Positions 21,939 through 45,552 of a stretch of DNA of 64,000 nucleotides are shown one piece after another. The translations under genes were made by a program, and so were the position numbers. The stretch comes from Candidatus Nanohaloarchaea archaeon (lineage in GTDB: Archaea > Nanohalarchaeota > Nanosalinia > Nanosalinales > Nanosalinaceae). Positions within the stretch are counted from its first letter, which is position 1. Every line of letters starts with the position of its first letter. The notes under the pieces were generated by a model, which made no database searches, had not been told where the DNA came from, and worked only from the letters and a program-made list of their open reading frames with translations. The DNA is taken from assembly GCA_041639695.1 (NCBI GenBank), contig JBEQBQ010000002.1, forward strand, positions 869-64,868, in the 5' to 3' direction.

Positions 21939-22976
21939 CTAACGAATCATCGACTTGCTGATAGTACAAAACGTTTTACGCGGTGCTCCAACGATGTTAT
22001 CGTCTGAATTAAGGTTTAAGTATTGTATTTCATAGCTCTTTGATGAGTCTAATTTTCGCTCTCCGGTTAGCACTATGGAGTGGGTTTCGGTATTGCTCGC
22101 GCCTTGTTCGACGTTTATGAAATCTTTATTGTCGGTAACATTCCTAAAAACTCCAATAAGGCGGTCTCCGTCCGAGAAACTATTCACAGTAATCTCGGCA
22201 CTGATTCGGTAGTGCCCTGTCTCTGGCGGAGAAAATTGGTTATTTGCTAGGTCAAAGTCACTGGTAACGTCTGTCACTTTGTTATCCCAGGTAACGGTCA
22301 CGCGACCGTTAGCCGTATTATAAGACTGGCTACTGGTTTTTTCAACTTCGATGAGAACTTCATCAGTAACATCTAAATTGGCTGTACTGAGTGAGCCAAA
22401 CTCTCCTTCGGTTGAGGCGTCCCAGTTACTGCCATCTGATATGAATGACAGCGACCATCCTGCGTTCGCGACGGCTTTCGAGGCTTCCCCGCCAGGGTCG
22501 ATCGTTTCAGAGCCTTCGGTGTCAACGGTGACGCTGTTCGCACCGCTTATGTTGACGATGTCGATTTTGTTGCCTTGGGTGGTGTCGGTAGTTCCAAGCG
22601 TGACTGTGACTGGACCGTTGCTAGTGTCAGCGTAGATGGCGTCTTCGCCGTTCGTTGTATAGCTTGTTCTGTTGGCTGAGTCGATTACTTCCGTATTTTT
22701 ACTGACTTCTTTATCATTTTGGAATATTCCGTTCTTGGTTAGTTTTAGTCCGGATGCGGAGGCTAAGCCTATTGCTCCGAGGCCTGCGCTAGCTACTCCG
22801 GCTTTCTTCAGAAAACTTCTTCGTGATATTTCTTTCTGTTCTCTGACCTTTCCAGTTATCTTTTTTTCTTTAATTATTTTCTTTTTCTTATTCTCGTCAT
22901 TTAGTCTTTCTTCGAGCCTCTCCTCTACCTTTTTCTCCACAAGTTTCTCTAACTTTTCATCGTCTACAGAGGTCAT
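21939..22976 (-). CDS. coiled-coil-leader / twin-arginine-signal secreted protein with C1q/TNF-like C-terminal head (family member 1)
   Basis: 345 aa. EKLEKLVEKKVEERLEERL..., RR at residues 52-53 (ISRRSFLKKAGVASAGLGAIGLASASG|LKL). Confidence 0.7.
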   Translation of the reverse strand: MTSVDDEKLEKLVEKKVEERLEERLNDENKKKKIIKEKKITGKVREQKEISRRSFLKKAGVASAGLGAIGLASASGLKLTKNGIFQNDKEVSKNTEVIDSANRTSYTTNGEDAIYADTSNGPVTVTLGTTDTTQGNKIDIVNISGANSVTVDTEGSETIDPGGEASKAVANAGWSLSFISDGSNWDASTEGEFGSLSTANLDVTDEVLIEVEKTSSQSYNTANGRVTVTWDNKVTDVTSDFDLANNQFSPPETGHYRISAEITVNSFSDGDRLIGVFRNVTDNKDFINVEQGASNTETHSIVLTGERKLDSSKSYEIQYLNLNSDDNIVGAPRKTFCTISKSMIR

Positions 22977-23075
22977 AGATGAATCTGGAAACTTTTCGAA
23001 TTAAAAGTTAACTAGGCTCATAGTAAAAAAGGGTTAGAGAAAGATTTTACGGAAAGTGGGGGGAAGATGTTTTCC

Positions 23076-24737
23076 TTACATCATTCCTCCCATTCCGCCG
23101 CCCGGCATTCCTCCTCCAGGTCCGCCAGGAGGTCCTCCGGCTTCGTCGTCTCCATCAAAGCCTGAAGCAGAGATAACATCGTCGATTCTGAGAATCATCT
23201 CTGATGCCTCCGAAGCGCTTTGAACTGCCTGTGTCTTCGTCTGCTTCGGTTCGACAACTCCTTGATCGAACAGTTTCTGGGATTCTCCAGAGGTTACGTC
23301 GATTCCGGCCCAAGTCTCTCCGTCATCATGCTTGTTTCTGAGGTCGACTAACGTGTCGATCGGGTCGTAACCCGCGTTCTCAGCAAGTGTTCTCGGAATT
23401 ACTTCCATGGCGTCTGCGAAAGCGTTGATCGCTAGCTGTTCTCTTCCTCCTACAGAATCTGCATAGTCTCGAAGTTCTTTTGCTAGTTCGACTTCGGTTG
23501 CTCCGCCTCCGCCGACAACTCTTCCGTTTCTTAGAGCTGAGGAAACGCCGCCGATCGCGTCTTCCATAGCTCTTTCAATCTCGTCTACGACATGCTCTGT
23601 TCCGCCTCTGATAAGTAGGGAGACGGATTTGGCTTCCGGACAGTCGTTGATGAATGTCATGGCGTCGCCTCCAACACGTTTCTGCTCAACTGTTCCTGCG
23701 TTACCAAGATCTGAAGCTTCGATGTCTTCGATCGAGGTAACGATGTTTGCGTTTGTTGCTTTCGATAGCTTGTCCATATCGGTAGAGCTTACTCTTCTAA
23801 CCGCAAGGATTCCTTTCTTAGCTAGGTAATGCTGTGCGATATCGTCGATTCCTTTCTGGCAGAGAACTACATTTGCTCCTGAGTCTGCGATTGAGTTGAC
23901 CATTTCTTTGAGCTGATCTTCCTCCTGTTCTACGAAGCTCTGCATCTGTGAAGGATCAGAGATGTTGATTTCTGCATCAGTTTCTGTTTCTTTAACTTCG
24001 ATTGCGGAGTCAAGGAGTGCGATCTTCGCATCTGAAATGCTGTCGGGCATTCCTGAGTGCGTCTTCTCTTTGTCAAGGATTACGCCTTCTACAAGCTCAG
24101 TTTCCTCGATAGATCCTCCTTGGCTTTTTTCTACCTTGATCATGTCTCTGTCGATTACGAAACCGTCTTCTGTCTCTTCGGCAACGTCTTTGACCGCATC
24201 AACTGCTAGAGTGCCAAGGTATTCGCGTGATGCTTCTGCGCTTTTTCCGGTCATGGCTGTCATAGCGACTTTTCTTAGTGTTTCATCGTCGCTGAGTTCA
24301 ACTTCTTCTGCAATATCGTCTAGAACCTGTGTTGATCTCTGTCGGGCCATCCTGTATCCTTTTGTGATAACTGTTGGATGGATTTCCTGGTCTAGCAGCT
24401 CTTCTGCCTGCTTTAGAAGTTCGCCTGCCAGGACCACGGCGGTTGTTGTACCATCGCCAACTTCTTCTTCCTGTGTCTGTGCGACCTCGACCATCATCTT
24501 TGCTGCAGGATGGTCAAGATCCATTTCTTCAAGTATTGTTACGCCGTCGTTCGTTACCACGAGGTCTCCTACGGAATCGACCATCATTTTGTCCATTCCT
24601 TTTGGCCCTAAAGTAGTTCTTACGGCTTTTGAAACGCTTTTACATGCTGCTATATTGTTTTCTTGAGCATCTTCTCCTGTTGTTCTTTCCGCGTCTTCAG
24701 ACATTATGAAGACTGGTTGTCCACCTAGTCCTGGCAT
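23076..24737 (-). CDS. thsA: thermosome subunit (group II chaperonin)
   Basis: 553 aa. [25 protein letters not shown]-terminal GGMGGMM tail. Confidence 0.95.
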
Positions 24738-24817
24738 AGAAATCTAATCACCTATTTTTGTAGACGTATGTTAAAATTTTAAAGATATCTCTTCGAAAAT
24801 TCTCCGGACATACTTTT

Positions 24818-25948
24818 CTAGGATGTCTTTGTTCTTGTTTTAAGCGAGCCGTTCTGGAATCTTGCGTATGGCAAATCGATCCATGCATCTAAATCTCCGT
24901 TTAAACCTCCCCATGCGCCGCTTGTACCTCCATGGGTTAAGCCAACTCTTCCAATATCGTTTGTACTATGTGCGTTTAAGGATCTCCCTGAGAGCGAACT
25001 GTTGCTTGTGGATCCCCCGACATCCTTCCAAATTACATCATAAGTTAACGTGCTCCAGTCAATATAGAACTCCATCTTCCTCCAAACGCCATAATTAGGG
25101 CTAGGTGATGAAACCATTTCGGTAGATCCATCGCCGTCCTCTATAGTTACTTGAGGGTTGTCTGTGCCTGCGTAGAAAAGATTGGAGCCGTTCGAGGTTG
25201 AAGGTGAATAAGCAGTTACTCTGTTGTTTGAGGTTTCATAGTAGTAGAACTCCAAATAATCATATTTGGCTGCATCGAAGTCGATATAGGCATGTGCCTC
25301 TCCGGCGTTAGCGGTATCGTTTAAGTGAAGAGATTTACTGCCTTCGTATGCATACGTTTCGCTGACTGAAGGAGATTTATTACAAGTCCATGGTGAGGGA
25401 GGTTGAGATCCAGAAGTGTATGATTCCCAGGTCTCCGCAGATAGATCAAGTCTAACCTTGTTTGAGGGGTGATTTACGTTATTTTCGGATTGAGAGTTGT
25501 TCCAGTCAGAGGAGGAAGCCCATTTTCCTACATTACTCAAATCCGCACTATTTGCCTCAGGACTCTTGTTAATTTCCTGATTATTTAATTGCCATTCAAT
25601 CCAATAAGTGTTCCCTGAACTCCCATCCAGGTTTGATAGAGTGTATGTATTAACTCCGTCAGCGACAGATATTGTTTCAGTGTTATCGGCTGTTCCATCG
25701 CCGGTTGTATCCTCATACACTGTTAAGCTCATCGAAGTTCCCGATGAAACTGTTGCATCAGTTTCTATCTGATTGACATCAACGTTACTCCATACAGTAC
25801 TCCCATCGACAGTAATCTCTTGGACTTGTTCGCCATCAATAGTTACATCTGTAACACCTGTGCCGTCAAGATTTATAGCTAGAGAATTCCAGATAACCGG
25901 GCAGGAGAACAGGAATAAGTTCCTTAAGTTTTTCAGTTTCAGTAACAT
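24818..25948 (-). CDS. LamG/concanavalin-like jelly-roll protein, partner of family member 2
   Basis: 376 aa. N-terminal INLDGTGVTDVTIDGEQVQEITVDGSTVWS motif shared with 26591..27319. Starts 7 nt after the upstream stop. Confidence 0.5.
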   Translation of the reverse strand: MLLKLKNLRNLFLFSCPVIWNSLAINLDGTGVTDVTIDGEQVQEITVDGSTVWSNVDVNQIETDATVSSGTSMSLTVYEDTTGDGTADNTETISVADGVNTYTLSNLDGSSGNTYWIEWQLNNQEINKSPEANSADLSNVGKWASSSDWNNSQSENNVNHPSNKVRLDLSAETWESYTSGSQPPSPWTCNKSPSVSETYAYEGSKSLHLNDTANAGEAHAYIDFDAAKYDYLEFYYYETSNNRVTAYSPSTSNGSNLFYAGTDNPQVTIEDGDGSTEMVSSPSPNYGVWRKMEFYIDWSTLTYDVIWKDVGGSTSNSSLSGRSLNAHSTNDIGRVGLTHGGTSGAWGGLNGDLDAWIDLPYARFQNGSLKTRTKTS

Positions 25949-25954
25949 GGTTTT

Positions 25955-26377
25955 TTACGTTTTGAAGTTGATTACGCCGCTGCCGTCAGTCCCGTTCTTC
26001 TGTATTTCATAACCATCTACAGAATCTGCATCCAGACCTGTTGTATCGGTACTTGACCAGTCGATATTGTCGGGCGTAAGGTTGCTTATTCCGGAATTCC
26101 AGAAACTGTTTCCGTTTTGAGTGATACCTGAATCAGTAAGTTTTAGTTTTGAAGCAGCTGGAACAAGTCCTACTGCACCTAAACCTAATGCTCCTGCACC
26201 TATTTTCTTCATAAATGAGCGGCGTGAAAACTGCTGTTTTGGCGTTGCTTGATTCTCATCCTCCAAGTCTATCTCATCGTCAATAACTGTGTCTAAGAGG
26301 CCTTTTAATCTCTGATTTTGTTTTTCCAGTTCTTTGACTTTGTTCTCCAGTTTTTCAATCCGTTCAGGATTTGCCAT
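25955..26377 (-). CDS. coiled-coil-leader / twin-arginine-signal small secreted protein (family member 2)
   Basis: 140 aa. IEKLENKVKELEKQNQRL..., RR at 52-53 (FSRRSFMKKIGAGALGLGAVGLVPAAS|KLKL), TGLDADSVDG motif. Confidence 0.7.
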   Translation of the reverse strand: MANPERIEKLENKVKELEKQNQRLKGLLDTVIDDEIDLEDENQATPKQQFSRRSFMKKIGAGALGLGAVGLVPAASKLKLTDSGITQNGNSFWNSGISNLTPDNIDWSSTDTTGLDADSVDGYEIQKNGTDGSGVINFKT

Positions 26378-26590
26378 AGTAAAACTATTCCTAACTTGGC
26401 TATAAAATGTTTCCTGCTTGCAGTCTAAAGTCTTCTATGGTTTCAGCTCCAAGTATTATCTTATCTAGACGTTCTTCTATTCAGATTCGTTCCTTATTAT
26501 GGTGAAAATGTGGGTGACTAAACTTTCTAACGGGTACTTAAGTTTTCTACAAAGGGTTTGATGTTGGAGTTAATCAATTTCGAAGTTTTT

Positions 26591-27319
26591 TTAGTGGATG
26601 TAGAATTTATCCCAGTAAGGATCTGCTTTATGGTCGGCTCTGAAACCGATGCCCCCGCTGTCATGCGAACTGTCCGTGTAGGAGGTCGAGGCTACTTCAG
26701 TTCCATTATCGAAAACTTTCACGGTTATGGTGTCAAATCCCCAATTACACTGTAGCCGGTACCATTTTCCAGTAATCCAGGTTATTGAGTCTGTTGACTG
26801 AACATTATTTCCGTCTAGAAGACCGATATTTCCATCTCTGAAGTCTGCGTGAAATCCGTAGCCGCTGTGTATATCGGTGACATCCTGCAGTCCAAAGCAG
26901 GTTCTAGGTTGTGAATCTGATTGACCTCCTCTAATCCAGACAGAGAAAGTATCTCCTCTGGAAGGATAATTTGAAAGTCCGCTGGAAGAAGTAATCCATT
27001 TGTTCGAGCCGCTTCCTCCGCCTTTCAAAGCATTACTTCCTTCGTAAACCGGAGAAGATACTGTGCTGAAATAAGATGTATATCCGCCGTCGTAATCATT
27101 AAGATTGCCGCTCTCGAAGTCATCAACTATTTTCGTTGAGTTCCAAACTGTGTTTCCATCTAACGTTACTTCTTTTACATTCTCTCCATCTATGGTTAAG
27201 CCCTGTATCTCAGAACCATCAATATTTATACCAAGCAGGCTGTAAGGTATATGGAATTGTTTTGGTTGGTTAAATGAAGTTTCAAGTGTTTTGAACAGCT
27301 TTTTCCTAAAATTTTTCAT
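26591..27319 (-). CDS. LamG/concanavalin-like jelly-roll protein
   Basis: 242 aa. GINIDGSEIQGLTIDGENVKEVTLDGNTVWNS, then DDFESGNLNDYDGGY...YEGSNALKGGG..., typical of a LamG-like fold. Confidence 0.5.
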   Translation of the reverse strand: MKNFRKKLFKTLETSFNQPKQFHIPYSLLGINIDGSEIQGLTIDGENVKEVTLDGNTVWNSTKIVDDFESGNLNDYDGGYTSYFSTVSSPVYEGSNALKGGGSGSNKWITSSSGLSNYPSRGDTFSVWIRGGQSDSQPRTCFGLQDVTDIHSGYGFHADFRDGNIGLLDGNNVQSTDSITWITGKWYRLQCNWGFDTITVKVFDNGTEVASTSYTDSSHDSGGIGFRADHKADPYWDKFYIH

Positions 27320-27430
27320 CCCTGACTCCCTTTAGGCTAGTACTGTTTTCCGATAGCATGATGGCTGTACCTGTATAAGCTTCTTTCCGTTAAAAAATGG
27401 TAAGTCGACAGCATCTATCCGAACATAAAG

Positions 27431-29290: not shown

Positions 29291-29338
29291 TTTTCTATTA
29301 CCTCTAGAGTCCTGTTTTTTATCCCTGTAAGAGATGTG

Positions 29339-31486: not shown

Positions 31487-32224
31487 CTATCTGAAGTTCT
31501 GTACATCGACTTTCAGGAAGTCGGCGCCCGTAGGCAGCTGGTAAAGAACATCATACTTGAAACCGTACTCGCTTGAGATCGTAGCCTTAATCCTGCCCGT
31601 TCCAATATAATCTCCTAGTTGTTCGGCTTCTGTATAACCTGTTCCGTAGCTTGTAGATGGCTCGGCATTAAGTTTTACGGTAATATTGCCGTCCAGGTTT
31701 TTGTTCGGGCCTTCAGGGTTTTTGAACTCGTAGAGGGCGACTAGCTTTGAGGTATTGATACTTTGAGGAGAGCTGCTTGAACCCACATTTTTAATACAGG
31801 CCTTAATATGGTCGTTCTCCATAAGGTAGCACGAGGTTCCGTCTATAGTAGTTTTGTTTACCTCCACATTTGCAGAGGAACTTAAGACTATGTTGCCGCT
31901 TTTCTTCGAGGTCTGTGGCGATATTACGTTTGAATCAGTACGTAACTCATATATTAAGGATTTGGTGTCGTTGTTGAAATAGAGTTCTCCCCGGCTAAAA
32001 CTTATATCCATAGTTCTTGTAGAGCCTTTCCCTTCGGAGACGACTTCTTGGACGTTGGAGTCTACAGTCTGCATGAAGTTCTGGGCCTTCCTGATCGAGT
32101 TGGCGTCCTGCATGTTTTCAAGTGCGGGGGCGCCAACTGTAAGGGCTGCAGAGACCGCGGTCACAGTCACTCCTACGTATATTGCCATCGTCGCGATCTC
32201 AGAAACTCCTTTCGACATAACCAA
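31487..32224 (-). CDS. prepilin-like protein (class III signal peptide)
   Basis: MVMSKG|VSEIATMAIYVGVTVTAVSAAL. Confidence 0.6.
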   Translation of the reverse strand: MVMSKGVSEIATMAIYVGVTVTAVSAALTVGAPALENMQDANSIRKAQNFMQTVDSNVQEVVSEGKGSTRTMDISFSRGELYFNNDTKSLIYELRTDSNVISPQTSKKSGNIVLSSSANVEVNKTTIDGTSCYLMENDHIKACIKNVGSSSSPQSINTSKLVALYEFKNPEGPNKNLDGNITVKLNAEPSTSYGTGYTEAEQLGDYIGTGRIKATISSEYGFKYDVLYQLPTGADFLKVDVQNFR

Positions 32225-32248
32225 TCCTACTTTCTGGTGGCTTAAATA

Positions 32249-32797
32249 TTAATGGAGCCGGGTATTTACCCAGGTCTCACTATCATCTTCCATCTTGGAC
32301 CAGACAAACATACGGGAGTTAGAAACGTTAAACTCTCTGTCTATTCCGAGCGATTTCACCTTAATACGGGATTCAAACTTTCCTTCAGGAAGCGAAATCT
32401 GTTTGCTCTGCATGGATTCTAGAGTTAAGTTGGACCAAGATCCGTCTACTTGTATATCTGTATTGATTAGGGAATCGCCGTAATTAATTACGAGCCCTTT
32501 ACCCGAATAAGGAAGTAAGATATAATTTAGGCCTCTATAATCTATACCTTTTCTCTGAGACTGCCTGTCTATGAATCTGTGAGAGTTGTAAACCCTTCTT
32601 TCGATATATGTTGATGAGAGATTTTTCTGAAGGGCTTCGTCAAAAGATTCAACTGGTACATCCATCGAATCCGAGAAGTACTGCCTAAAATAGGTTTCTT
32701 CTCCGCCTTCTACAAAGTCGCCGTAAGAATAGACTGTTAGGAGAATGAAGCTTGAGAATACGATAGCTGAAAGTATGAAGACTTGGCCCTTTCTCAT
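32249..32797 (-). CDS. prepilin-like protein (class III signal peptide)
   Basis: MRKG|QVFILSAIVFSSFILLTVY. Confidence 0.6.
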   Translation of the reverse strand: MRKGQVFILSAIVFSSFILLTVYSYGDFVEGGEETYFRQYFSDSMDVPVESFDEALQKNLSSTYIERRVYNSHRFIDRQSQRKGIDYRGLNYILLPYSGKGLVINYGDSLINTDIQVDGSWSNLTLESMQSKQISLPEGKFESRIKVKSLGIDREFNVSNSRMFVWSKMEDDSETWVNTRLH

Positions 32798-33369
32798 TTG
32801 TATATCGCCGCCCGTATCTCGTAGCTCGAGTTTTCATATCCGGGATAGTTTACTGTATATACGTCGTCTTTCTCAGGCAGATTACCTTTCGAAATATATG
32901 AGTTAAATGAAACAGTAAGCTTTCCGGTTCCAGTAATATTGAACCATCTTTGGCCCGAATCAACGCTCTCAAAGTGGTAACCGTCTTTACTGATGTTGTC
33001 AAGCACCTTTGAATCCCCAAAACTTGCGTTGAGGTTGTCTGCGTTCTTCACCCATAGCTGCATGCCTGAAAGATTCGAGCTACTGAAATATGTCTGATCC
33101 GGGGACTGGAGACTTCTGTAAGTTGAGTTCATTTGGATTATTCTGACTGAATGATTGTAGCTCTCAGGTATAGTTGAATCAATTTTGTTCTTGACTAAAG
33201 AGGGGTCAAGCGGTAGTTTATCTCTTTGTTCTAGAGTTTTAAGTTCCTGCAGAACGCTGTCAAACTCGATATCTGCCTGCTGTGAAGTCTGGGGTAGAAC
33301 AACAAGTACCATAGTCAGAATTAGTGTCGATGCTATGACTGCCTCTAAAGTATGTATGAAACCCTTCAC
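32794..33369 (-). CDS. prepilin-like protein (class III signal peptide)
   Basis: MKG|FIHTLEAVIASTLILTMVLVVL; the N-terminus resembles that of 12662..14440 (GHIIEAMIAII). Confidence 0.6.
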   Translation of the reverse strand: MKGFIHTLEAVIASTLILTMVLVVLPQTSQQADIEFDSVLQELKTLEQRDKLPLDPSLVKNKIDSTIPESYNHSVRIIQMNSTYRSLQSPDQTYFSSSNLSGMQLWVKNADNLNASFGDSKVLDNISKDGYHFESVDSGQRWFNITGTGKLTVSFNSYISKGNLPEKDDVYTVNYPGYENSSYEIRAAIYK

Positions 33370-34532
33370 CAGACGGTCACCCTTGTACTTAGCTCAGTTA
33401 AGCTACCGTTCCTGTAAAAACCGGTAAGAAAGCCTTCTCTCGACACAGCCTGTTGCAAAGGTATCTGGCTGCCTATGGAGGTAATTTTCTTAGTTTGGTT
33501 CGATACTGAAATGTTAAACCTGTCCGGAGAACGTTCTAAGAGGTTTTGAAGCTCTTGATCTGATTTATTGTTAAGTTCTTCTATCCTCGCTATAGGGGCT
33601 GCTGGGAAACTGTTTAGGGGTCCGAAAACGGTTTTACCTTCGCTGTAGCTCTTTATCCTCTTCCAGCCTGCTTTGTAGTCTTTATCGTGAAGTCTTATCC
33701 GGACTCTGCTTGCGTTTATCTCCGCCAACACCGTCGAGCTATCGGGCTTGGATACATCAGCCTCCATATTACCTATAAAGCTTATGCCGTAGTTTGATGC
33801 TACGGTAAAACCTTTTGTGGTTCCCTGTTTGAAGGATCCGCTTCCTACAAGTTCGGTTGTAGAGTTGTCTGCTTCCCAGTACAGAGTTGAAAGGTTTTTG
33901 AGTTGGAAGGATATATCGGAGGCGTTTTCAAGAATCAGTTCCGTTGAACCGTTGTAAATATTTAGATCGACCGGCCTCATCTCTGCAAATAACCGATATT
34001 CCTCTATATTAAAGGTTGAAGTATTTAGATCCGCGGAGGATGAGAGAAGCTGTTTGTCATTAATTTTTAGCGACTGAAGCCCATTCCCGCCTGGTTTTAC
34101 TGAAATATCGGAGTTGTTCATCCATGTTCCTGTATCAATATCCTGGTAGACGTCCCCTGTAATATTTCTCGGGAAGAGATTCAGAGTTCTAGTAGCATTC
34201 GATTTCTCTATTACTGTAACTGTTCTGTTCTTGTAGAGCTCAACATTTTCATTCCCTAGGCTCGCGTTAACATAGAATTTGTCAAAAAAATGTTTTCGAT
34301 CCACAGGAACGCTTGAGATTGTAAACGGCGACCTTGTTACCAGTTTTTTCTGGCCGAGAGAATCAGTAAACTGGCTCTCCAAACGTTCGCCGACCTGGGT
34401 TGCCAGATTTTCTAGATTGCTTGAGTTTTCTCCTGTCTGGTAGCCGGCTAGGAAGATAATGCTGGAGAGTAATGTGATTATCATTAGACCCAGTCCTATA
34501 GACCAGTCGATGTTGACGGACTGACCTTTCAA
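33366..34532 (-). CDS. prepilin-like protein (class III signal peptide)
   Basis: MKG|QSVNIDWSIGLGLMIITLLSSIIFLAG; 388 aa. Confidence 0.6.
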   Translation of the reverse strand: MKGQSVNIDWSIGLGLMIITLLSSIIFLAGYQTGENSSNLENLATQVGERLESQFTDSLGQKKLVTRSPFTISSVPVDRKHFFDKFYVNASLGNENVELYKNRTVTVIEKSNATRTLNLFPRNITGDVYQDIDTGTWMNNSDISVKPGGNGLQSLKINDKQLLSSSADLNTSTFNIEEYRLFAEMRPVDLNIYNGSTELILENASDISFQLKNLSTLYWEADNSTTELVGSGSFKQGTTKGFTVASNYGISFIGNMEADVSKPDSSTVLAEINASRVRIRLHDKDYKAGWKRIKSYSEGKTVFGPLNSFPAAPIARIEELNNKSDQELQNLLERSPDRFNISVSNQTKKITSIGSQIPLQQAVSREGFLTGFYRNGSLTELSTRVTVW

Positions 34533-35530: not shown

Positions 35531-35863
35531 ATGGAGTCCAAAATTCTGATGACGCTACTGGGTATTTCTTTAGTAGCGGTAGCGGCTGCACCTGCCTCAG
35601 AGCCTAACCATCCGTTCTCTCAGATTTACCCGGTAGATGTTGACCTCAACATGTCAGAAAAGGATATCTTCAACGTTACAGAAGTCGATTTAGCTGGAGG
35701 CCTAATTTTCTCAGGTGACTGGATAAAGACTCCTGGTGGTGCTAGCCTTTTAGGCTGGAACTCTTCTTCAACAGAACTTGAATTGAATAATGGAAATCTG
35801 GACACAAATGGGAATAGTATAGTTTCCTCGGGTTCTGAGCTATGTCTAGGCGATGAATGCTAG
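35531..35863 (+). CDS. small Sec-signal secreted protein ending in a CxxxxC motif (module copy A)
   Basis: 110 aa. Signal peptide, HPFSQIYPVDVDLN, NGNLDTNGNSIVSS, C-terminal ELCLGDEC. Paralog of 36928..37266. Confidence 0.6.
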   Translation: MESKILMTLLGISLVAVAAAPASEPNHPFSQIYPVDVDLNMSEKDIFNVTEVDLAGGLIFSGDWIKTPGGASLLGWNSSSTELELNNGNLDTNGNSIVSSGSELCLGDEC

Positions 35864-36927: not shown

Positions 36928-37266
36928 ATGAATAGCTGGAGAGCCGGAGGTATCGCCTTATTAGCCATATTTCTAGCTGCTCTAGCTACCGCTCCCACCG
37001 TACAACACCATCCGTTCTCACAGATTTTTCCGTCAGACCAGGATCTCAACTTTGGAGAATACGATGCGTTTAATATGACAGAAGTTAACCTGGCGAACGG
37101 AGCTATTTTCACAGGCAACGTGGTCAGAAACGCTGGAAGATCGATTGATATTATTAGATACCTAAATACTGGAAATGTAGAGATACCTAACGGCAATCTA
37201 GATCTGAAAGGCAACAACATTACTTCTTCATCTGGAGGTGAGATATGTGTCGGAGAATATTGTTGA
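36928..37266 (+). CDS. small Sec-signal secreted protein ending in a CxxxxC motif (module copy B)
   Basis: 112 aa. HPFSQIFPSDQDLN, NGNLDLKGNNITSS, C-terminal EICVGEYC. Confidence 0.6.
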   Translation: MNSWRAGGIALLAIFLAALATAPTVQHHPFSQIFPSDQDLNFGEYDAFNMTEVNLANGAIFTGNVVRNAGRSIDIIRYLNTGNVEIPNGNLDLKGNNITSSSGGEICVGEYC

Positions 37267-38155
37267 AATTGATAAAGAAGAATTAGAGGGACTGATTGAG
37301 AGTAAAGTTGAAGAAAGAGTAGAGGAGAGAGTACAGAAAGAGCTTGAGAAAGGAAAAAGTACTAAGAAAGAGTCCGAAAGCGGTATGTCGAGAAGAGGTT
37401 TTTTAAAGAAGCTTGGAGCTGGAGCAGTAGGTTTAGGCGCTCTTTCGCTGTCAGCCTCGGCATTAAACGTTAGAAGTGACGACCTGACATTCTACGGAGC
37501 TGATTCATCTCAGGAGTTAGAGGTGCTTGATGGAGGTCCTGTGAACATCAAAAACGCCAATTTGCAGTTAAATGGAAATAGTATTGAAGGGGTAGAATAT
37601 CTGAAGTTAAATAACATAGAGTTTGGAAGCTTGCCGACTGAGGAGTTCGTAATAGGTATAGATAACAGCGAGTCCCCGAAATATTATCATAATGGTTCTT
37701 GGAGGAAATTCTGGACCTCAAAAAACGATGGAGACGGAAGCGGGCTAAACGCTGACATGGTGGATGGCGAGGAACCGCCTTTTGGTCAGATGCCGTCGGG
37801 AGCTATTGTCATGTGGTCTGGCTCTATCTCGAACATTCCCTCAGGATGGGTTCTCTGTGACGGCAATAATGGCACGCCTGACCTCCGAGATCGTTTCGTG
37901 GTGGGTGCAGGCAACTCCTATAATGTTGGAAATACGGGAGGGGAAGCCTCACATAATCTTACGGAAAGCGAGATGCCTTCACATAATCATGGCATAAAGG
38001 AGGTAAGTAATGTTAACGATTCAAATATAGGGGAAGGATTTACGCACAACGACGGCGATACAAGCTATATCAATTTCTCGCAGGATGCTGGAGGCGATAG
38101 CGCTCACGAAAACCGACCGCCTTACCATGCGCTAGCCTATATTCAGAAGGTGTAA
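37247..38155 (+). CDS. coiled-coil-leader / twin-arginine-signal secreted protein with phage tail-collar-like C-terminal domain (family member 3)
   Basis: GTG 37247 gives MSENIVEIDKEELEGLIESKVEERVEERV, which aligns with member 4 (the ORF is open from 37238). RR at 49-50 (MSRRGFLKKLGAGAVGLGALSLSASA|L). GDGSGLNADMVDG. GAIVMWSGSISNIPSGWVLCDGNNGTPDLRDRFVVGAG...MPSHNH. Confidence 0.75.
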   Translation: MSENIVEIDKEELEGLIESKVEERVEERVQKELEKGKSTKKESESGMSRRGFLKKLGAGAVGLGALSLSASALNVRSDDLTFYGADSSQELEVLDGGPVNIKNANLQLNGNSIEGVEYLKLNNIEFGSLPTEEFVIGIDNSESPKYYHNGSWRKFWTSKNDGDGSGLNADMVDGEEPPFGQMPSGAIVMWSGSISNIPSGWVLCDGNNGTPDLRDRFVVGAGNSYNVGNTGGEASHNLTESEMPSHNHGIKEVSNVNDSNIGEGFTHNDGDTSYINFSQDAGGDSAHENRPPYHALAYIQKV

Positions 38156-38158
38156 ATT

Positions 38159-38578
38159 ATGACTCATAAATGCTCAAGATGTGGTGAAGAACTAGGCCGG
38201 GGGAAGGAAGTCAAAGATAAAGCTCGTTACATCGAATCTCACGACATGGAAACTGAGACTGAAAGAGAGCAGATTATTGCTTTAAGGCATACTGACAAGA
38301 CAAGGCAAATCCGGGACATATTGGTAGATGAGCAGGGTTTGAATGTTGTTCAGGCAAACAGAGTGATGGCAAGGAAAGACAAGTCCTATCTAGATAAGAT
38401 CGACAAGTCATTCACTGAATCGGATTTTAAGCAAGAAGAAGTCTCTAACCCGGTTTCTCCAGAGGAGGATCCAGAGGTCGTCCAAGTTGATACAAAACTG
38501 ATTACAGAAAAGGAGGCTGAGAAAGCTCTTGTATGTAAGCAAGAATGTGTTAAGGAGCAGGATGAAATCATATGGTAA
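38159..38578 (+). CDS. hypothetical protein with N-terminal CxxC
   Basis: 139-aa acidic ORF starting 4 nt after the previous stop; MTHKCSRCGEEL. Confidence 0.45.
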   Translation: MTHKCSRCGEELGRGKEVKDKARYIESHDMETETEREQIIALRHTDKTRQIRDILVDEQGLNVVQANRVMARKDKSYLDKIDKSFTESDFKQEEVSNPVSPEEDPEVVQVDTKLITEKEAEKALVCKQECVKEQDEIIW

Positions 38579-38692
38579 GTCGTGTTTTCTAAGGATATTG
38601 GGATATTTGCTGCATATGGAAGGTCTTGAAAGGATATCTCCAGTAAAAACGACAATTTTAAACCCCAGAAAACTAAATTTTTTCTATAATTA

Positions 38693-39549
38693 ATGTCGGG
38701 CAAAATTGAGGTAGATCCTGAAGAACTTGAAAAGTTGGTTGAACGTAAGGTTGAGGAAAGACTAAAAGAACGGCTTGAGCAGGAAACTGTCGAAAACAGT
38801 AAAAATTCTGAAGACGGGATTTCGAGGCGAGGATTTCTGAAGAAACTTGGTGCTGGCGCCATGGGTTTAGGCGCGGTAAGTTTTTCATCCGTTAGTGCCT
38901 TAACTTTGTCAAAGAACTCTATCAGAAATAATGGTCAGTCCATCTCTTCTGGAGGTCTATTTGATTTGAATAGCTACCTCTCGCGGTCCGGCGGTAATCT
39001 ATCTGGTCCACTAACACTTGGAGGGGACTTGAAAGCAAATGATGGCGAGTTGATTTGGGATGAGTCTAATTCCTTTGTACCGGCTTCCGTCTTAGAACAG
39101 TCTGGGATCGACCATGACAATCTGTCCAGTATTTCTGCTGATGATCATCATCCGGAGGTTTCTGCCGGAACGAATATTTCCGTTGATTCAAGTAACACGG
39201 TTGGTGTTTCTCCTCAGGGCCATACAAGCGTTTAAATGCGGATATGGTTGATGGAAATCATGCAGATGAGTTAAAGGGTATTACTGTATCTGATATTAAA
39301 CACGAGTCCGGAAGTACAGGTGTATCCGTTGGAGGAGGTTCCTACACTATCAACCTTTCGAATAATTATAGGACTCTTACCGGGTTGAGTACTGATATTC
39401 AGAACTCTAATTGGGATACAAACAACAATAATGCAGATGCTGCATGGATTAGTGATATTGATCTTTCAAACAACCAAGTAACTATCAGCTATACGAATGA
39501 TGAGAACAATACCGGTACTTTGTATTGGGATGTTTGGGGAATCGTATAA
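38693..39549 (+). pseudogene. coiled-coil-leader / twin-arginine-signal fibre-like gene split by a 1-nt frameshift (family member 4)
   Basis: ORFs 38693..39235 and 39244..39549 are in different frames. The second frame reads ...RLNADMVDG upstream of its ATG. Restoring one G at about 39229-39231 gives ...PQGHTSGLNADMVDGNHADEL, matching GSGLNADMVDG of member 3. Confidence 0.65.
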
Positions 39550-39637
39550 TGCCTTTTGAATTCTTGAGCCTATTAATAATCTGATTTCAGACTCATCCGG
39601 CATAAAGTATTTACATTAGAATATTGTATCTTCTACC

Positions 39638-39865
39638 ATGGGATTAATTGGTTTACAGGAAGCAGTTCTGATAGGTGCTGCAGCGATCGCTCTAATCATG
39701 GGTCCAAAGAAACTTCCACAGCTAGCACGTTCTCTAGGTGAATCAAAGAAAGAGTACAAGGAATCTATGAAGGAGGCTGAGGAGGCGGTTGATGAAGCGG
39801 CTCCTGATGTTGACGAGGAGATGGAGGAAGTAGAGAAAGAAGTAAAGGATGTAAAGGAAGAATAG
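39638..39865 (+). CDS. tatA: Sec-independent (Tat) translocase protein TatA/E
   Basis: 75 aa. MGLIGLQEAVLIGAAAIALIMGPKKLPQLARSLGES followed by an acidic tail. Confidence 0.85.
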   Translation: MGLIGLQEAVLIGAAAIALIMGPKKLPQLARSLGESKKEYKESMKEAEEAVDEAAPDVDEEMEEVEKEVKDVKEE

Positions 39866-39873
39866 GATAAGTT

Positions 39874-40560
39874 ATGCAGACCCTACAGGATCACGTCAGG
39901 GAACTCCGGAAACGATTAAAGGTTGCAGGAGCTTTCTTTCTTCTAGCTGTCGGAGTATGTTTCTATTTTTCCTCCCAAGTTCTTAACTGGCTTCAATCAG
40001 ATCTAGGCTTCGCACTACACGCTTTAACAGCTTATGAAGTACTTTACACGGAGTTAATGATTGCTTTCCTTGGAGGATTTCTATTCAGTCTTCCAATAGT
40101 TCTATATGAAATAATTGCGTTTATGCGTCCGGGTTTAAAGGAGAAAGAGTATCTAGTGATGAGAAATTATTTGCCGTTCTCGGTAATACTTTTCGTAGGT
40201 GGGGCTGTGTTTGCATACAGTTACATAGTCAAAGCCAGTCTCGCGTTCTTCAACTCGACAACCGAATCTGCGAACGTCGCCGCGGTCTGGGGCCTCCAGA
40301 ACACGGTAGGTTTCGCCTTAAGGATCTCAGCTTTCACCGGCATAATATTCCAACTTCCCATCGTCTCGGTACTCCTAGCTAGGGCAGGGCTCCTGAACGT
40401 TGATATGATGAAAAGATACAGGTCGTACTTCATAGTGTCGATTCTCGTAATCTCAGCTTTGGCAACACCGCCAGACCTTATATCTCAGGCACTGGTAACT
40501 GGACCCGTTATCGGTCTTTATCAGATCAGTATTTTACTGGTGTCTCGGTTCGAGGACTAA
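39874..40560 (+). CDS. tatC: Tat translocase protein TatC
   Basis: 228 aa. HVRELRKRL N-terminus and six predicted TM helices; immediately downstream of tatA. Confidence 0.85.
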   Translation: MQTLQDHVRELRKRLKVAGAFFLLAVGVCFYFSSQVLNWLQSDLGFALHALTAYEVLYTELMIAFLGGFLFSLPIVLYEIIAFMRPGLKEKEYLVMRNYLPFSVILFVGGAVFAYSYIVKASLAFFNSTTESANVAAVWGLQNTVGFALRISAFTGIIFQLPIVSVLLARAGLLNVDMMKRYRSYFIVSILVISALATPPDLISQALVTGPVIGLYQISILLVSRFED

Positions 40561-40662
40561 AACTTGTTAAATAGAGCGAGCAAGAATAAATGTATGAACG
40601 GGTTGAAGTAGTTTATCCTTCGAAGGTTCCCGGCTTTCTGGCGTGGTTCCGGCTCAGAAAGC

Positions 40663-41313
40663 TTGGCGAAGGAATCATATTCGGGGACAAATATTTCCCG
40701 TAGATCGTTCCTCAGAAAGCTAGGTGCGGGCGCCATAAGTGTAGGTGCTCTAGGTTTAACTCCTGCTTATTCGGGCCTCAAATTAAGTTCTGGCGGGATT
40801 ACAAAGGACGGTACAAGTTCTTTCTGGCATGAGGGAACATTCAGCAAATCAAACTATCTCCCTGTTGATGGTTCACAGGATATGGCGGGAGATCTATCTA
40901 TCTATCGCCGGAGATCTAAAAACTGATGGCAGTACCACTATATGGGATAGCTCTAATGCTCAAATCCCTGCTTCGATTATAGAGCAGGGGGATGGAAGCC
41001 AGCTTGATGCTGATACCGTCGATGGTTCGGAGCCGGGCGAAATAGGGTTGCAGGTTTATTCGGATAGTTTTACAGTTCCTGCAGGACAGCCCTATCGTGA
41101 GAACACGGGTCTAACTCCTTCCGAGTGGTTTCTGTAGAAGTGATACCTATTACAGGGGATGTAGCGGTTGAACAGGTTAAATCGACTAGCAGCCCTGCAG
41201 AAGTGGGTTATTACATCGTCTATGACTCTGCAAATGGGATGGAAATAGATCTTTCTATCCAGAATAATACTTCGCAAGACGTGGATCTTTATGTGAAAGT
41301 TATTCATAACTAA
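40663..41313 (+). pseudogene. twin-arginine-signal fibre-like gene with two frameshifts and no coiled-coil leader (family member 5)
   Basis: Three ORF pieces in frames 1/2/1: 40663..40926, 40829..41137, 41125..41313. TTG start; ISRRSFLRKLGAGAISVGALGLTPAYS|GLKL. The middle piece carries GDLKTDGSTTIWDSSNAQIPASIIEQGDGSQLDADTVDG. Confidence 0.65.
40892..40906 (+). repeat. (ATCT)3ATC tetranucleotide tract at the first frameshift of member 5
   Basis: gATCTATCTATCTATCg read directly. Removing one 4-nt unit joins ...DMAGDLSI to AGDLKTDGS... in frame. Confidence 0.8.
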
Positions 41314-41425
41314 AAGGATTGGGATGTTTTCCTAGCAATATGTTTAAGGGTGCTTCTAGGTAGTCGAGGGGCGGGTAGGACGCCAAACCACAAGATAGTT
41401 AAACAACCTATTGAATTAGGGTGTT

Positions 41426-42152
41426 ATGACGGGCGATGTTAAAGAGGTCAAAAAAGAGAAAAAATCCTCTGAAATTGGCCGACGTTCTTTCCTTAGGAAA
41501 TTAGGAGCTGGTGCTATAGGTATTGGGATCTTTTCACTCCCTTCAGTGTCTGCTCTGGATATTAAAAGTAGTACGGGCCTTGAGGTCTTCAGCGGTAACA
41601 AGAAATACCTGGATGTAGAGTCCGGAGGGCCTGTAAGCGTCAATAATACAGGACTCAACGTTAGTGGAGGTCTGGATGTGGGGGTCAGGAAAGTTTTACA
41701 CTGATCTGGGTATATTGTCTGATGTTTTTCTGGCTGCGGATAGCGCATGGTTTACAGCGAACGCGAAGGATGTCTCTGGAAGCGGAGGAGTAAAAATGCA
41801 GGATGGTGGAACGACTAAAATGGCTGTGGAATGGTCTAACGGTTATCAGTACGGAAGAATAACGGATGAAGGTGCCGGAGAGGACTGGATGGTTTTCAAT
41901 CCTGGTGGTCCTGTAGATGTAAAACGTAGTCTGAACGTGAACGGCAACAAGGTCTGGCACGCCGGAAACGACGGTTCCGGAAGCGGTTTGGTGGCCAACA
42001 AAGTTACAGGGACGAACGGTGGCAATAGGTTAGGAGGCCAGATGCCTGTTTATCAGACTAAGACCGATGCCCAAAACGACTCAGATGTCGTCGAGGGAAC
42101 TATAGTGTACGTAAAAGAGGATAACACTTTCTACTACGAGGACGGTACGTGA
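41426..42152 (+). pseudogene. twin-arginine-signal fibre-like gene split at a G5 tract (family member 6)
   Basis: ORFs 41426..41704 and 41664..42152. EIGRRSFLRKLGAGAIGIGIFSLPSVSA|L. Removing one G from GGGGG (41680-41684) gives ...GGLDVGSGKFYTDLGILSD... in one frame. Confidence 0.65.
41680..41684 (+). repeat. G5 homopolymer at the frameshift of member 6
   Basis: gatgtGGGGGtcagg read directly. Confidence 0.8.
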
Positions 42153-42991
42153 TGGCTTTAGTACCGATAGGAGGTGGTTCGGACAAGGCCCTGGGTTTCG
42201 ATAATCCTTACGGTGATGGAAGCGACGGTTCACTCACATGGGGCTCCAACTCCACGAAAGGAGGCATTTTCCAGACAACAGATCTTACCATAACGTCAGG
42301 CACCACGATTACAATCAGTTCCTCTAATACGGTATTAGTGGTTATGGCGCAGAACAGTATTACTGTTGAAGCAAATGTTACTATAAATGGTTCAGGCGCG
42401 GGAGGTGCCGGGGGTAGCGGCGGAAACGGAGACTCAAACAGAGATTATAGAATGGGTAATCCTGGTGAGGACGGTATGATAACAGGGCCCGGAGCGGCGG
42501 GAGGTGGTGCTTACGATACTGCATCTGGTGGTTTATCAGTTCCATCAAGTTTGAAAGCACCAACAATATACGGCACAGCTATGGAGATAGCGACCCAGAG
42601 TTCCCTTGATGTCTCTGCCGGGGGTACAGGTGGGAGCGGTAGCTACTACTACGCAAATGGCGGGAACGGCGGTTCAGGTGGAGGAGGTCTTATACTGATC
42701 GCTCCGGACATATCAGTAGACTCCTCTATGTCTATTGACCTTTCAGGGACGGATGGTCAGAAAGGTGATAATGGATCTGACTATGATGGTGATAACGGTG
42801 CTGGCGGTGGAGGCGGCGGTGCTGGAGGGGTTTTCCTTGCCTTAGGGCAGAACGTAAACGCAGATCTCTCGAATGTAGATATTTCGGGGGGTGCTGGAGG
42901 TGCCGGAGGGACGGGCGGAGGCTACAACTCTCCAGGAGATCCTGGTGAGGACGGTGTTAATGGGATCAAGGCAGTTCGGAGTCTGAATTAG
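42149..42991 (+). CDS. glycine-rich beta-helix-like protein, translationally coupled to member 6
   Basis: 280 aa. Start overlaps the upstream stop (GTGATGG). ...LTITSGTTITISSSNTVLVV...ITVEANVTINGSGAGGAGGSGGNG..., repeated GGxGG blocks. Confidence 0.6.
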   Translation: MMALVPIGGGSDKALGFDNPYGDGSDGSLTWGSNSTKGGIFQTTDLTITSGTTITISSSNTVLVVMAQNSITVEANVTINGSGAGGAGGSGGNGDSNRDYRMGNPGEDGMITGPGAAGGGAYDTASGGLSVPSSLKAPTIYGTAMEIATQSSLDVSAGGTGGSGSYYYANGGNGGSGGGGLILIAPDISVDSSMSIDLSGTDGQKGDNGSDYDGDNGAGGGGGGAGGVFLALGQNVNADLSNVDISGGAGGAGGTGGGYNSPGDPGEDGVNGIKAVRSLN

Positions 42992-43051
42992 ATTCTCGAA
43001 AGTTTCGAACCTCTTTTAAAAAGTTAGGGTTTCCATTTCTGAATATGCAAC

Positions 43052-44380: not shown

Positions 44381-44400
44381 ACCTTCTTCCTCTCCACTTT

Positions 44401-44877
44401 TTATTTCTCTATTCTAAGTCTATCTCCCTTACTGATTGAATGATTTTCTGCGAAGTCCTGGTTTAATTCCACTACGTACTGGGCCGGCTCCTCGCTCCTG
44501 TAAGATGCAAGCTCGTCCTCCGGGGTGTTAGGTTCCGGATCGGCTTGTTCAATATTGAGTACAGTGTAGTTCGAGTCGAGGAAGATAATATCGAGCGGTA
44601 TGTATGTGTTTTTCATCCAGAACCATCTATTTCCCTCAGATTCGTACTTGAAAAGCATTCCATGATTCTTTTCCAGTTTGGTTCGGTTCATCAGGCCTTC
44701 TCGGCGCTCGGATGAGGTATCAGCGACCTCCAAGTTTACCTCGGCTAAAGTTTCGTTTCCAGAGATAAAGTTAGCCTTAACATTTTGGTCGTCTAGCAGA
44801 TGATTTGTTGCTCCCATGCCAACCAAGGCTGCTACAGAGCCAACTAGAAGTAATCTATAGATTTTTGACATTTCCAT
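44401..44877 (-). CDS. DUF192 domain protein with N-terminal signal/anchor
   Basis: 158 aa. REGLMNRTKLEKNHGMLFKYE...WMKNTYIPLDIIFLD, the DUF192 signature. Confidence 0.7.
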   Translation of the reverse strand: MEMSKIYRLLLVGSVAALVGMGATNHLLDDQNVKANFISGNETLAEVNLEVADTSSERREGLMNRTKLEKNHGMLFKYESEGNRWFWMKNTYIPLDIIFLDSNYTVLNIEQADPEPNTPEDELASYRSEEPAQYVVELNQDFAENHSISKGDRLRIEK

Positions 44878-45043
44878 GAAGATTACCTAGCTTAGAAGAT
44901 AACTTTGGAAGGATTTGTGGTGTGAAGAATAGTGTCAAAGCAACAGATAATAGAATGGCTTCCCCAATACCAAGACTGAAAGGGAGAGGTATGAAAAACA
45001 TACTATAATATTGGTTAAGTTAAGTCTTAAGCATTAACCAGAT

Positions 45044-45050
45044 TTTTATT
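45044..45050 (+). promoter_or_regulatory. TATA-box-like element upstream of family member 7
   Basis: TTTTATT centred about 26 nt upstream of the in-frame ATA at 45073. Confidence 0.3.
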
Positions 45051-45063
45051 CAGTTCTGTATAA

Positions 45064-45552
45064 TACTTTAGTATAGTTAGTTTAAAGGAAGAGGTTCAAG
45101 AACTCAAGGAACGTGTCTCTGAGCTTGAAGAAGAGAATAAAAGGCTTAGGAAAGACTCTATTGAAGAAAAAAATGTTTCTAGGAGGTCATTCCTGAAAAA
45201 ACTTGGTGCAGGGGTGATAGGTTTAGGCGCTCTTTCCGTTCCTACTTCCGCATTAAACATCAAAAGCAGTAAAGGGCTCGAAGTTTTTGCCAACAACTCA
45301 AACTACTTCAGTGTTGAAACAGGGGGCCCTGTGAAAGTGAAAAATACTGATTTAGAAATCGGTAAGGATCTGCTGGCTAAAGACGGTGAGCTGATATGGG
45401 ATGAATCAAACTCGCAGATACCTGCTAATAGGATAGAGCAAGGTGAGGGGAGCCAGTTAAATGCGGATACTGTTGACGGTGTTGAGGCAAATTCTCTCGG
45501 GGCTTCTGCATTAAATATTGAAGGCTTTGCTCCCAACTTTGGTGGAAAATAA
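45064..45552 (+). pseudogene. coiled-coil-leader / twin-arginine-signal fibre-like gene lacking any ATG/GTG/TTG before the signal (family member 7)
   Basis: Frame open from 45064: ..I-VSLKEEVQELKERVSELEEENKRLRKDSIEEKNVSRRSFLKKLGAGVIGLGALSVPTSA|LNIK... The first canonical start is GTG 45214, inside the signal h-region. Later DGELIWDESNSQIPANRIEQGEGSQLNADTVDG. Confidence 0.6.

Follow-up and report, generated by a model that had tools for sequence, protein, structure and literature searches.

Nanohaloarchaeal fibre-like proteins with a long helical leader ahead of a predicted twin-arginine signal, encoded around tatA-tatC

Introduction

A stretch of 64,000 nucleotides (nt) from a Candidatus Nanohaloarchaea archaeon (assembly GCA_041639695.1, contig JBEQBQ010000002.1, positions 869 to 64,868 of the forward strand; the whole stretch is called the window hereafter) raises the question of why most of seven related genes should encode a long, charged segment in front of a twin-arginine translocation (Tat) signal, and fibre-like domains behind it. 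The window displayed a G+C content of ~44% and an acidic proteome, and the halophilic archaeon that a first-pass annotation had supposed from the letters alone was indeed its source, the organism being a nanohaloarchaeon. Salt-in halophiles export folded proteins via Tat. The seven genes probably belong to a fast-evolving, Nanohaloarchaeota-specific family of secreted or surface receptor-binding fibres, exported in a folded state by the TatA and TatC encoded in the same cluster.

Seven genes with a shared twin-arginine core

A six-frame scan of the window with the pattern RR-x-F-[LM]-[KR]-K-x-G-x-G yielded exactly seven open reading frames (ORFs), with RR codons starting at 22823(-), 26224(-), 37391, 38825, 40699, 41480 and 45181; the core that the first-pass annotation had ascribed to seven genes was thus found at each of the positions it listed. 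All seven read [SG]-R-R-[SG]-F-[LM]-[KR]-K. They were labelled M1 to M7 in order of window position (lengths in amino acids, aa):

M1, 21939..22976 (-): intact, 345 aa; KVEER-type leader at residues 1-51, Tat signal with RR at 52-53; beta-sandwich at ~76-190 and C1q/TNF-like jelly-roll head at ~206-341, both modules from the AlphaFold2 (AF2) model and Foldseek
M2, 25955..26377 (-): intact minimal member, 140 aa; leucine-zipper leader, RR at 52-53; mature part of ~65 aa ending in GTDGSGVINFKT
M3, 37247..38155 (+): intact, 302 aa; KVEER-type leader, RR at 49-50; mature part with an LNADMVDG junction, then a phage tail-collar head
M4, 38693..39549 (+): KVEER-type leader, RR at 45-46; split by one frameshift
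M5, 40663..41313 (+): defective; TTG start, short leader, RR at 13-14, two frameshifts
M6, 41426..42152 (+): short leader, RR at 19-20; one frameshift
M7, 45064..45552 (+): defective; zipper leader, start codon lost, C-terminus truncated

For M1 to M6 these RR positions agreed with the earlier count (M3 being numbered from GTG 37247), while RR at residues 37-38 of M7 held only when counted from ATA 45073, the ORF otherwise having no canonical start. One extra match, at 59866(-), to the pattern RR-x-[FL]-[LMIV]-[KRQ]-x(1-3)-G ran into stop codons and was discarded. A looser scan, which asked for 13 or more uncharged residues after RR in ORFs of at least 60 aa, recovered the same seven genes together with four short ORFs (63-111 aa) that were judged spurious. 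Apart from the seven loci, the 64 kb contain no credible Tat-like ORF.

The NCBIfam model TIGR01409 matched six of the seven above its cut-off of 16.7 (M1-M5 and M7 at 18.9-21.7, including 21.3 for M1 and 19.4 for M2), and M6 scored 15.9. Among 154 family members the core [IVL]-S-R-R-x-F-L-K-K-[LIA]-G-[AL]-G-A-x-G-L-G-A-L-S-L-x-P-[AS]-[AS]-[SA] was conserved almost residue by residue (S in 138, RR and F in all 154, L in 140, K in 144). The hydrophobic (h-) region was weakly hydrophobic, with a best 19-residue Kyte-Doolittle mean of 1.34 +/- 0.14 that reached 1.6 or more in 3% of members, and an AxA-like site of the form Pro(-5)/small(-3)/small(-1) was present in 150 of 152. Both the small-x-small site and the strand described as following it were seen in the alignment of members. 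The hydrophobicity of the h-region and the AxA-like site favour a signal that would be cleaved. With the TIGR01409 matches, this site, the weak hydrophobicity and a tatA-tatC pair in the cluster, the proposal of a Tat-type signal was borne out and, as a prediction from sequence, the targeting of folded fibres to Tat has good support. Sec or class III signals are found on the other surface proteins encoded in the window, so Tat appears to be used selectively by the family.

Linkage to tatA-tatC

The pair, an operon overlooked in the first-pass annotation, is located between M4 and M5 and is flanked by the family:

tatA, 39638-39865 (+): 75 aa, translation MGLIGLQEAVLIGAAAIALIMGPKKLPQLARSLG; NCBIfam TatA/E models at E = 8e-12 to 8e-11, below the curated cut-offs
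tatC, 39874-40560 (+): 228 aa; Pfam TatC at E = 3e-54, full length

The window TatA was 66-69% identical to the TatA (PF02416) of Ca. Nanohalobium constans and of MAG_AT22, a metagenome-assembled genome (MAG). The tatA-tatC pair was found less than 10 kb from family members in four contexts, the window being one. In Ca. Nanohalobium constans, a member is followed by tatA-tatC 8 kb downstream, a 145-aa gene and another member; in MAG_AT22 the order is a member, ~3 kb of unrelated genes and tatA-tatC; and on a 243-kb contig it is a tatA-like gene, tatC, a 281-aa gene and a member. Since the arrangements differ among contexts, the linkage seems to have been conserved through rearrangement. Three other member contexts showed no tat genes within the DNA examined. 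TatC itself is patchy in Nanohaloarchaeota (PMC9765267).

Distribution of the family

A profile of the seven N-terminal regions obtained 375 matches at E <= 1e-3 and 218 at E <= 1e-10 among 1.84 billion representative proteins, 375 being a lower bound on family size, counted in clusters at 50% identity. Most alignments began at profile positions 2-8, that is, within the leader. A 36-sequence N-terminal alignment used as query returned 28 matches, its word candidates being saturated by charged coiled-coil sequences. All named sources were Nanohaloarchaeota: Ca. Nanohalobium constans, with at least three members, a Ca. Nanosalina-like MAG, and the MAGs DAL-Ass_45_77C1R and MAG_AT22. One public protein (P0001) was identical to M3.

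The exact pattern FLKKLGAG(A) occurred at two genome loci and at five metagenome loci, two of which (L010, L011) were doubtful or unrelated, and at none in the viral contigs of IMG/VR. Members bear only the generic NCBI name 'twin-arginine translocation signal domain-containing protein', and no paper mentioning the family was found in the literature searched; the architecture does not appear to be one already characterised.

A translated leader of two helical types

The long leader is the rule for the family: in 148 of 154 members at least 34 residues precede RR (median RR position, residue 51), and the conservation of the pre-RR segment, first described among the paralogues, thereby extended beyond this genome. 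Upstream of RR the frame was open for 35-90 codons in 148 of the 154 diverse members, and the codons of two conserved amino-acid leader motifs varied synonymously between paralogues and genomes. The ATGs of M1 and M2 are preceded at 26-31 nt by TATA-like boxes (TTTTAA or TTTTATA), and GTG 37247 of M3 at 5 nt by a Shine-Dalgarno-like GGAGGTGA. A confident leader helix was modelled by AF2 at residues 3-39 of M1 and 10-38 of M3, with a predicted local distance difference test (pLDDT) of ~90. The residue at position -2 to RR was I in 74, V in 42, L in 25 and M in 8 of the 154 members; this hydrophobic position, a Met in 8 of 154 only, argues against a general internal start just before RR. An internal start of M3 at the Met two codons before RR was rejected, the position being the conserved hydrophobic one that is Ile in 74 of 154. 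The open frame, the synonymous codon variation and the conserved motifs point, with high confidence, to a leader that is translated, and speak against an untranslated coiled coil.

Two types of leader could be distinguished, with slight overlap. Zipper leaders, including those of M2 and M7, made up 55 of 139 (~40%), with the consensus VE-L--RVE-LEEEN+-LK and heptad scores of 5-6 out of 6. KVEER leaders, including those of M1, M3 and M4, made up 79 of 139 (~57%) and carried the motif L-E-x-[IL]-[IV]-E-x-K-V-E-E-[RK]-[VLI] (LExLVExKVEER in the window), in which the hydrophobic residues are spaced 3,1,4,4,4 and give no heptad signal. The KVEER segment resembles a short recognition helix of amphipathic character, set within a helix rich in E, K and R. 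Leaders of the family were net acidic, with a median charge of -4.5.

The heptad-like character attributed to the leaders in general was therefore true of one type only: the M2 and M7 leaders scored 5/6, a value reached by 0 of 200 shuffles, whereas the scores of M1, M3 and M4 were reached by 49-73% of shuffles. Pfam bZIP_1 matched the zipper part of M2 (E = 0.001). Zipper cores, of 3-4 heptads, carried I/V (40%) or Asn (20%) at position a and Leu (62%) at position d. According to the GCN4 core rules, I/V with Asn at a and Leu at d favours parallel dimers, not trimers. A trimerising coiled coil, as the first-pass annotation had imagined the leader, is thus not what the sequences suggest, since the a/d composition of the zippers fits the dimer rule and the KVEER type has no heptad; the leader may have a looser hold-back or bundling role.

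Mosaic mature parts

Fibre-like heads had been proposed for the mature parts, and two were recovered. M3 matched PHROG 8469 'tail fiber protein' (E = 3.9e-29) and PHROG 1800 (E = 1.1e-21), while its Pfam Collar score (20.7) remained below the gathering score of 24 and its Gp10_C match was likewise weak. Its 5405 homologues included many named 'microcystin-dependent protein' or tail collar. The AF2 monomer model of M3 was poor (pLDDT 66.6), as would be expected of an intertwined trimer, and gave weak PDB matches to Bizionia C24, the Pa223 fibre and T4 gp12.

In the AF2 model of M1, the beta domains, including residues 206-341, reached a pLDDT of 80-95 and the presumed signal segment was of low confidence. 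Foldseek aligned the head with C1QL, the C1q domain of Caprin-2 and EDA (E = 1e-6 to 1e-5, template modelling score on the target 0.75-0.81), confirming at the level of the model a ten-strand gC1q/TNF jelly roll. The same head matched phage receptor-binding proteins and spike and short-fibre tips, and in BFVD C1q-domain phage fibres. Its beta-sandwich module also occurs in signal-less fibre-like proteins. Among 50,697 phage records, the sequence matches of M1 were only baseplate or hypothetical proteins of Halorubrum tailed virus 4 (HRTV-4), Haloarcula californiae tailed virus 2 (HCTV-2) and Haloarcula tailed virus 3 (HATV-3), and the structure search likewise returned virion proteins, from viruses of Halorubrum and Haloarcula. 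For M4 and M6, the mature parts had no match in these 50,697 records. Collar and C1q/TNF domains normally form trimers, so that trimerisation of the family heads is probable.

The L[DN]ADxVDG motif that had been listed for the mature parts was present in five of the seven window members and in only 20 of 145 family-wide. Short C-terminal tips (GxINFKT, SLDFNYTG, VEDGT, WYRTDxD and DIWxDxS) recurred, and several occurred behind leaders of either type. Overall, the mature parts are mosaics of receptor-binding modules, some of which are common to haloarchaeal tailed viruses.

Very small members (130-210 aa) consisted of a leader, a signal, the N-terminal strand and a single short tip (e.g., GRMWYRTDQD, GDIWFDVS or, as in M2, GTDGSGVINFKT), the same tips being found on much longer members. 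In some minimal members the mature part was ~60-70 aa.

Damaged copies in a variable island

Only M1, M2 and M3 were intact. M4 has lost one nucleotide, 2 nt standing at 39230-39231 in place of the expected codon, and the syntenic member of MAG_AT22 is intact across the same GSGSGLDADTIDG junction where M4 breaks. The Logan assembly of SRR27869037 was identical over the 4.9 kb compared, M4 frameshift included, though it may derive from the same reads. The first frameshift of M5 is a 22-nt insertion around 40885-40906 with a repeated GGAGATCTA. The insertion holds the second GGAGATCTA copy together with TCTA repeats (40885-40928) and is not a sequencing error of the homopolymer type. In M6 the frame is lost at a run of five G (41680-41684), where either a sequencing error or slippage could be responsible.

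M7 had no ATG, GTG or TTG upstream of RR, the first in-frame one (45214) standing after it. ATA 45073 aligned with the initiator Met of homologous leaders (e.g., P0165), which begin MVSLEEKVEKL, and the codon (45073-45075) looks like a start lost by a single G-to-A change. M7 also ends early.

MAG_AT22 is syntenic with the window, its housekeeping proteins being mostly 53-96% identical. At the position of M3 and M4 it carries a single intact member, a chimera whose leader resembles that of M3 and whose shaft resembles that of M4, with a different head. The space that M5, M6 and ORF 42149 occupy in the window, from tatC to the RNase J-like gene, contains no gene in MAG_AT22, nor does that of M7, from a 158-aa gene to the tRNA ligase. 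The extra DNA of the window spans 40561-43051 and 44878-46068, against 15221-15263 and 17089-17281 in the MAG_AT22 locus (L003). These positional differences indicate an island that is variable between close relatives, and every extra family copy of the window relative to MAG_AT22 is defective. The short-leader members M5 and M6, frameshifted and at positions empty in MAG_AT22, are probably decaying copies and not a functional contrast to the long-leader members; M5, M6, M7 and perhaps M4 would be decaying or silent copies within the island.

Neighbouring genes

Genes without a signal peptide follow family members closely in the window:

38159..38578 (+): 139 aa, 4 nt after M3; no signal peptide, no Pfam or NCBIfam match
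42149..42991 (+): Gly-rich protein of 280 aa, its start overlapping the stop of M6; no signal peptide, PHROG 13336 at E = 2.4e-8, no Pfam or PDB match
24818..25948 (-): 376 aa, 6 nt downstream of M2; no clear signal peptide, no Pfam or PDB match

Same-strand signal-less genes starting 0-10 nt after family members were also seen elsewhere (L004 10640-13588, L007 ~10540-11253, L009 8722-9234). A different signal-less gene (146 aa) follows the MAG_AT22 member. In Ca. Nanohalobium constans, a 982-aa protein with three Laminin_G_3 matches, beginning MSLVGWWKLDGS, starts 10 nt after a member. The ORFs flanking M2, 24818-25948(-) and 26591-27319(-), have in common the N-terminal motif ..IDG..V..TVDGSTVW, and a motif ending in DG[ST]xVW was also found in the ORF after an M2-type member at L007. 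The product of 38159-38578 is a possible fibre-specific accessory protein or chaperone, that of 42149-42991 a possible co-exported or accessory fibre protein, and the signal-less downstream proteins as a whole may be Tat hitch-hikers or fibre chaperones.

Genes for a thermosome and for GatD/E-like, RNase J-like and Gln/Glu-tRNA-ligase-like proteins are interspersed with the cluster and syntenic with MAG_AT22. Other genes of the region were as follows:

20609-21106(-) and 31487-34532(-): genes for proteins like archaeal type IV pilins, their N-termini of class III type (Pilin_N, DUF7289, DUF7288); the cluster is conserved in MAG_AT22 at 53-89% identity
34529-35440(-)/35947-36861(-) (~303 aa) and 35531-35863(+)/36928-37266(+) (~110 aa): two paralogous pairs with Sec signals, forming two divergent units just upstream of M3; the small paralogue of MAG_AT22 is 194 aa; the pairs were assigned to no family
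21099-21824(-): 241 aa, 115 nt downstream of M1; long acidic coiled-coil-like region, then a Q/N/R-rich tail; no signal peptide, weak generic coiled-coil Pfam matches only

The end of 36928-37266 overlaps M3, and the two genes are probably transcribed together.

Proposed function and alternative explanations

A functional member of the family would be built from four parts: a translated acidic helical leader of 35-70 aa with a zipper or a KVEER motif, a Tat core that hardly varies, the conserved strand or stalk with which the mature protein begins, and exchangeable distal modules (collar, C1q/TNF jelly roll, beta-sandwich, short tip motifs). The heads would fold, and probably trimerise, in the salty cytoplasm. 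The RR core would then dock on TatC with the charged helix staying cytoplasmic, zipper leaders associating with themselves and KVEER leaders binding a partner. Signal peptidase would cut at the AxA-like site, the mature fibre would stay on the cell through its conserved N-terminal module, and the fibres would bind the surface of the haloarchaeal host.

Several observations weigh against this account. RR at residues 45-53 in M1-M4, and at ~37-40 in M7, breaks with the usual N-proximal position in Tat signals, and Pfam PF10518 scored M1 at 16.2, below its gathering score of 22.7. Four of the seven local copies are broken. Linkage to tatA-tatC holds in four of about seven contexts, which are not independent as the genomes are related, and published work on two cultured nanohaloarchaea considers their Tat incomplete or 'likely inactive' (PMC10266531). 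Export, cleavage and surface location are predictions, and host binding is proposed by analogy with virus fibres and from the symbiont lifestyle. In 145 members no other hydrophobic or transmembrane segment, lipobox or C-terminal anchor was detected, which leaves the retention of a cleaved fibre on the cell unexplained. With no other anchor, such a fibre would need to be held by the conserved N-terminal module of its mature part, which would have to act like a phage-fibre docking module or the donor strand of Tafi pili.

This retention problem would vanish if the signal were never cleaved and its 18-22 Gly/Ala-rich residues formed an N-in transmembrane helix, with the charged helix as a permanent cytoplasmic oligomerising or tethering domain of surface spikes. 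Conservation in the family is highest in the leader and h-region, the h-region shows a small-residue spacing G-x-G-x-x-G-x-G and a median uncharged run of 20 residues, and host-binding fibres should stay attached; uncleaved Tat anchors are known, e.g., in Rieske proteins (PMC1182353). We nevertheless consider a signal anchor rather doubtful, as hydrophobicity was under the classical transmembrane threshold in 97% of members, the Pro/small/small site would be unnecessary if never cut, and AF2 gave the segment low confidence. Compatible with the export of folded, cleaved fibres, yet unlikely in our estimation, is that small members such as M2 serve as carriers, bringing the signal-less lectin-like, LamG or Gly-rich proteins encoded immediately downstream across the membrane in complexes formed beforehand. 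The genes 0-10 nt after M2, M6 and M3, the Laminin_G_3 protein of Ca. Nanohalobium constans, the shared motif recurring at L007 and the minimal mature parts all fit such a role. The downstream genes differ between loci, however, the start sites of the partners are predicted ones, and the window partners obtained no fold assignment in Pfam and PDB searches. In phages, genes downstream of fibres can encode cytoplasmic fibre chaperones, and the signal-less partners could equally be of this kind.

The collar, C1q-like and baseplate-like modules and the sequence matches to haloarchaeal tailed viruses might also suggest a provirus or tailocin remnant, whose proteins would be virion tail fibres and not cellular surface proteins. 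We regard this as highly improbable and rejected it on synteny and housekeeping context: the region has no capsid, portal, terminase or tail genes, the interspersed housekeeping genes are syntenic with MAG_AT22, every member carries a secretion signal, and no member with the core pattern was found in IMG/VR. Hardly any credence is left for an annotation artefact in which translation starts near RR and the charged segment is untranslated. The ATG of M3 two codons before RR and the short leaders of M5 and M6 would agree with it, but the open frame in 148 of 154 members with its conserved motifs and synonymous variation, the mostly Ile residue at -2, the promoter-like and Shine-Dalgarno-like signals at the long starts and the frameshifts in both short-leader copies have largely refuted it. 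A more elaborate form of the folded-fibre account appears to us a long shot: a dedicated nanohaloarchaeal export route in which the leader, zipper or KVEER helix, bundles precursors at oligomeric TatC on its cytoplasmic side, the folded multimeric fibre, possibly with lectin hitch-hikers, crosses in one step, distal modules are swapped with tail fibres of viruses of the same hosts, and the defective copies around tatA-tatC serve as a cassette reservoir for host specificity.

Comparison with known systems

Canonical Tat signals (TIGR01409/PF10518) have in common with the family the S-R-R-x-F-L-K motif, a weakly hydrophobic Gly/Ala-rich h-region, an AxA site and accompanying translocase genes. 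The family differs by the median RR position (residue 51), by a predicted whole signal of ~75 aa, about twice the Tat average of 37 aa (PMC1182353), by a conserved net-acidic pre-RR helix of two types, and by an h-region near-invariant across hundreds of members. Extended Tat leaders of redox enzymes (TIGR04519, MoCo_extend_TAT) also carry a conserved pre-RR sequence longer than targeting needs, and the similarity of the family to this model was weak and sub-threshold (E = 0.011). The pre-RR sequence of redox enzymes, including chaperone-binding n-regions of the TorA/TorD type, presumably serves cytoplasmic proofreading (of the cofactor) or hold-back. The family cargo is instead a cofactor-less fibre, its leader is an unrelated charged helix or zipper, and no dedicated chaperone was identified. 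With GCN4/bZIP zippers the zipper leaders share I/V and Asn at a and Leu at d, but they have no basic DNA-binding region and are fused to a secretion signal, which makes this a likeness of pattern, not homology.

Tafi pili (TafA/TafC/TafE; PMC11821415, PMC12337348) are likewise surface appendages of halophiles with Tat-exported subunits, and in some Tafi homologues a conserved N-terminus (signal and strand) is joined to unrelated C-terminal domains. Their mature N-terminal strand mediates attachment as a donor strand (PMC11821415, PMC12337348). The Tafi signal is however short (in one example, Natrinema TafE, RRNVL from residue 5) and has no helical leader, and Tafi subunits are polymerising pilins, whereas the family has fibre heads with phage folds. 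Pfam and NCBIfam scans of the members found no DUF1102 (Tafi-related) or other pilin family, no sequence relationship being detected, and the window ORFs scanned included no dedicated TafD-like peptidase gene and no taf-like neighbours. Phage receptor-binding proteins (T4 gp12 collar PF07484, C1q-like tips, HRTV-4/HCTV-2/HATV-3 baseplate proteins) share with the family an N-terminal attachment module with shuffled distal modules, the collar and C1q/TNF folds and small accessory genes directly downstream. Unlike phage fibres, the family is chromosomal, lies among housekeeping genes outside a virion gene set, and carries a Tat signal and leader.

Significance for nanohaloarchaeal biology

Nanohaloarchaeota are obligate ectosymbionts of haloarchaea, and to our knowledge it is unknown how they recognise and hold their hosts. 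Attention to host contact has so far been on giant SPEARE-like and LamG proteins (PMC10266531, PMC7443923). With hundreds of mosaic members, viral receptor-binding head folds and a location in a variable island, the family is a concrete candidate host-recognition system, the candidate modules being partly common to viruses of Halorubrum and Haloarcula. It is also a probable client set for the patchy nanohaloarchaeal Tat. Its natural, conserved signal of ~75 aa, with a structured acidic helix predicted before RR, is of a kind that predictors expecting an N-proximal RR may miss, and the family could show how oligomeric cargo reaches the translocase. As Ca. Nanohalobium constans bears members and is in culture, these ideas are experimentally accessible.

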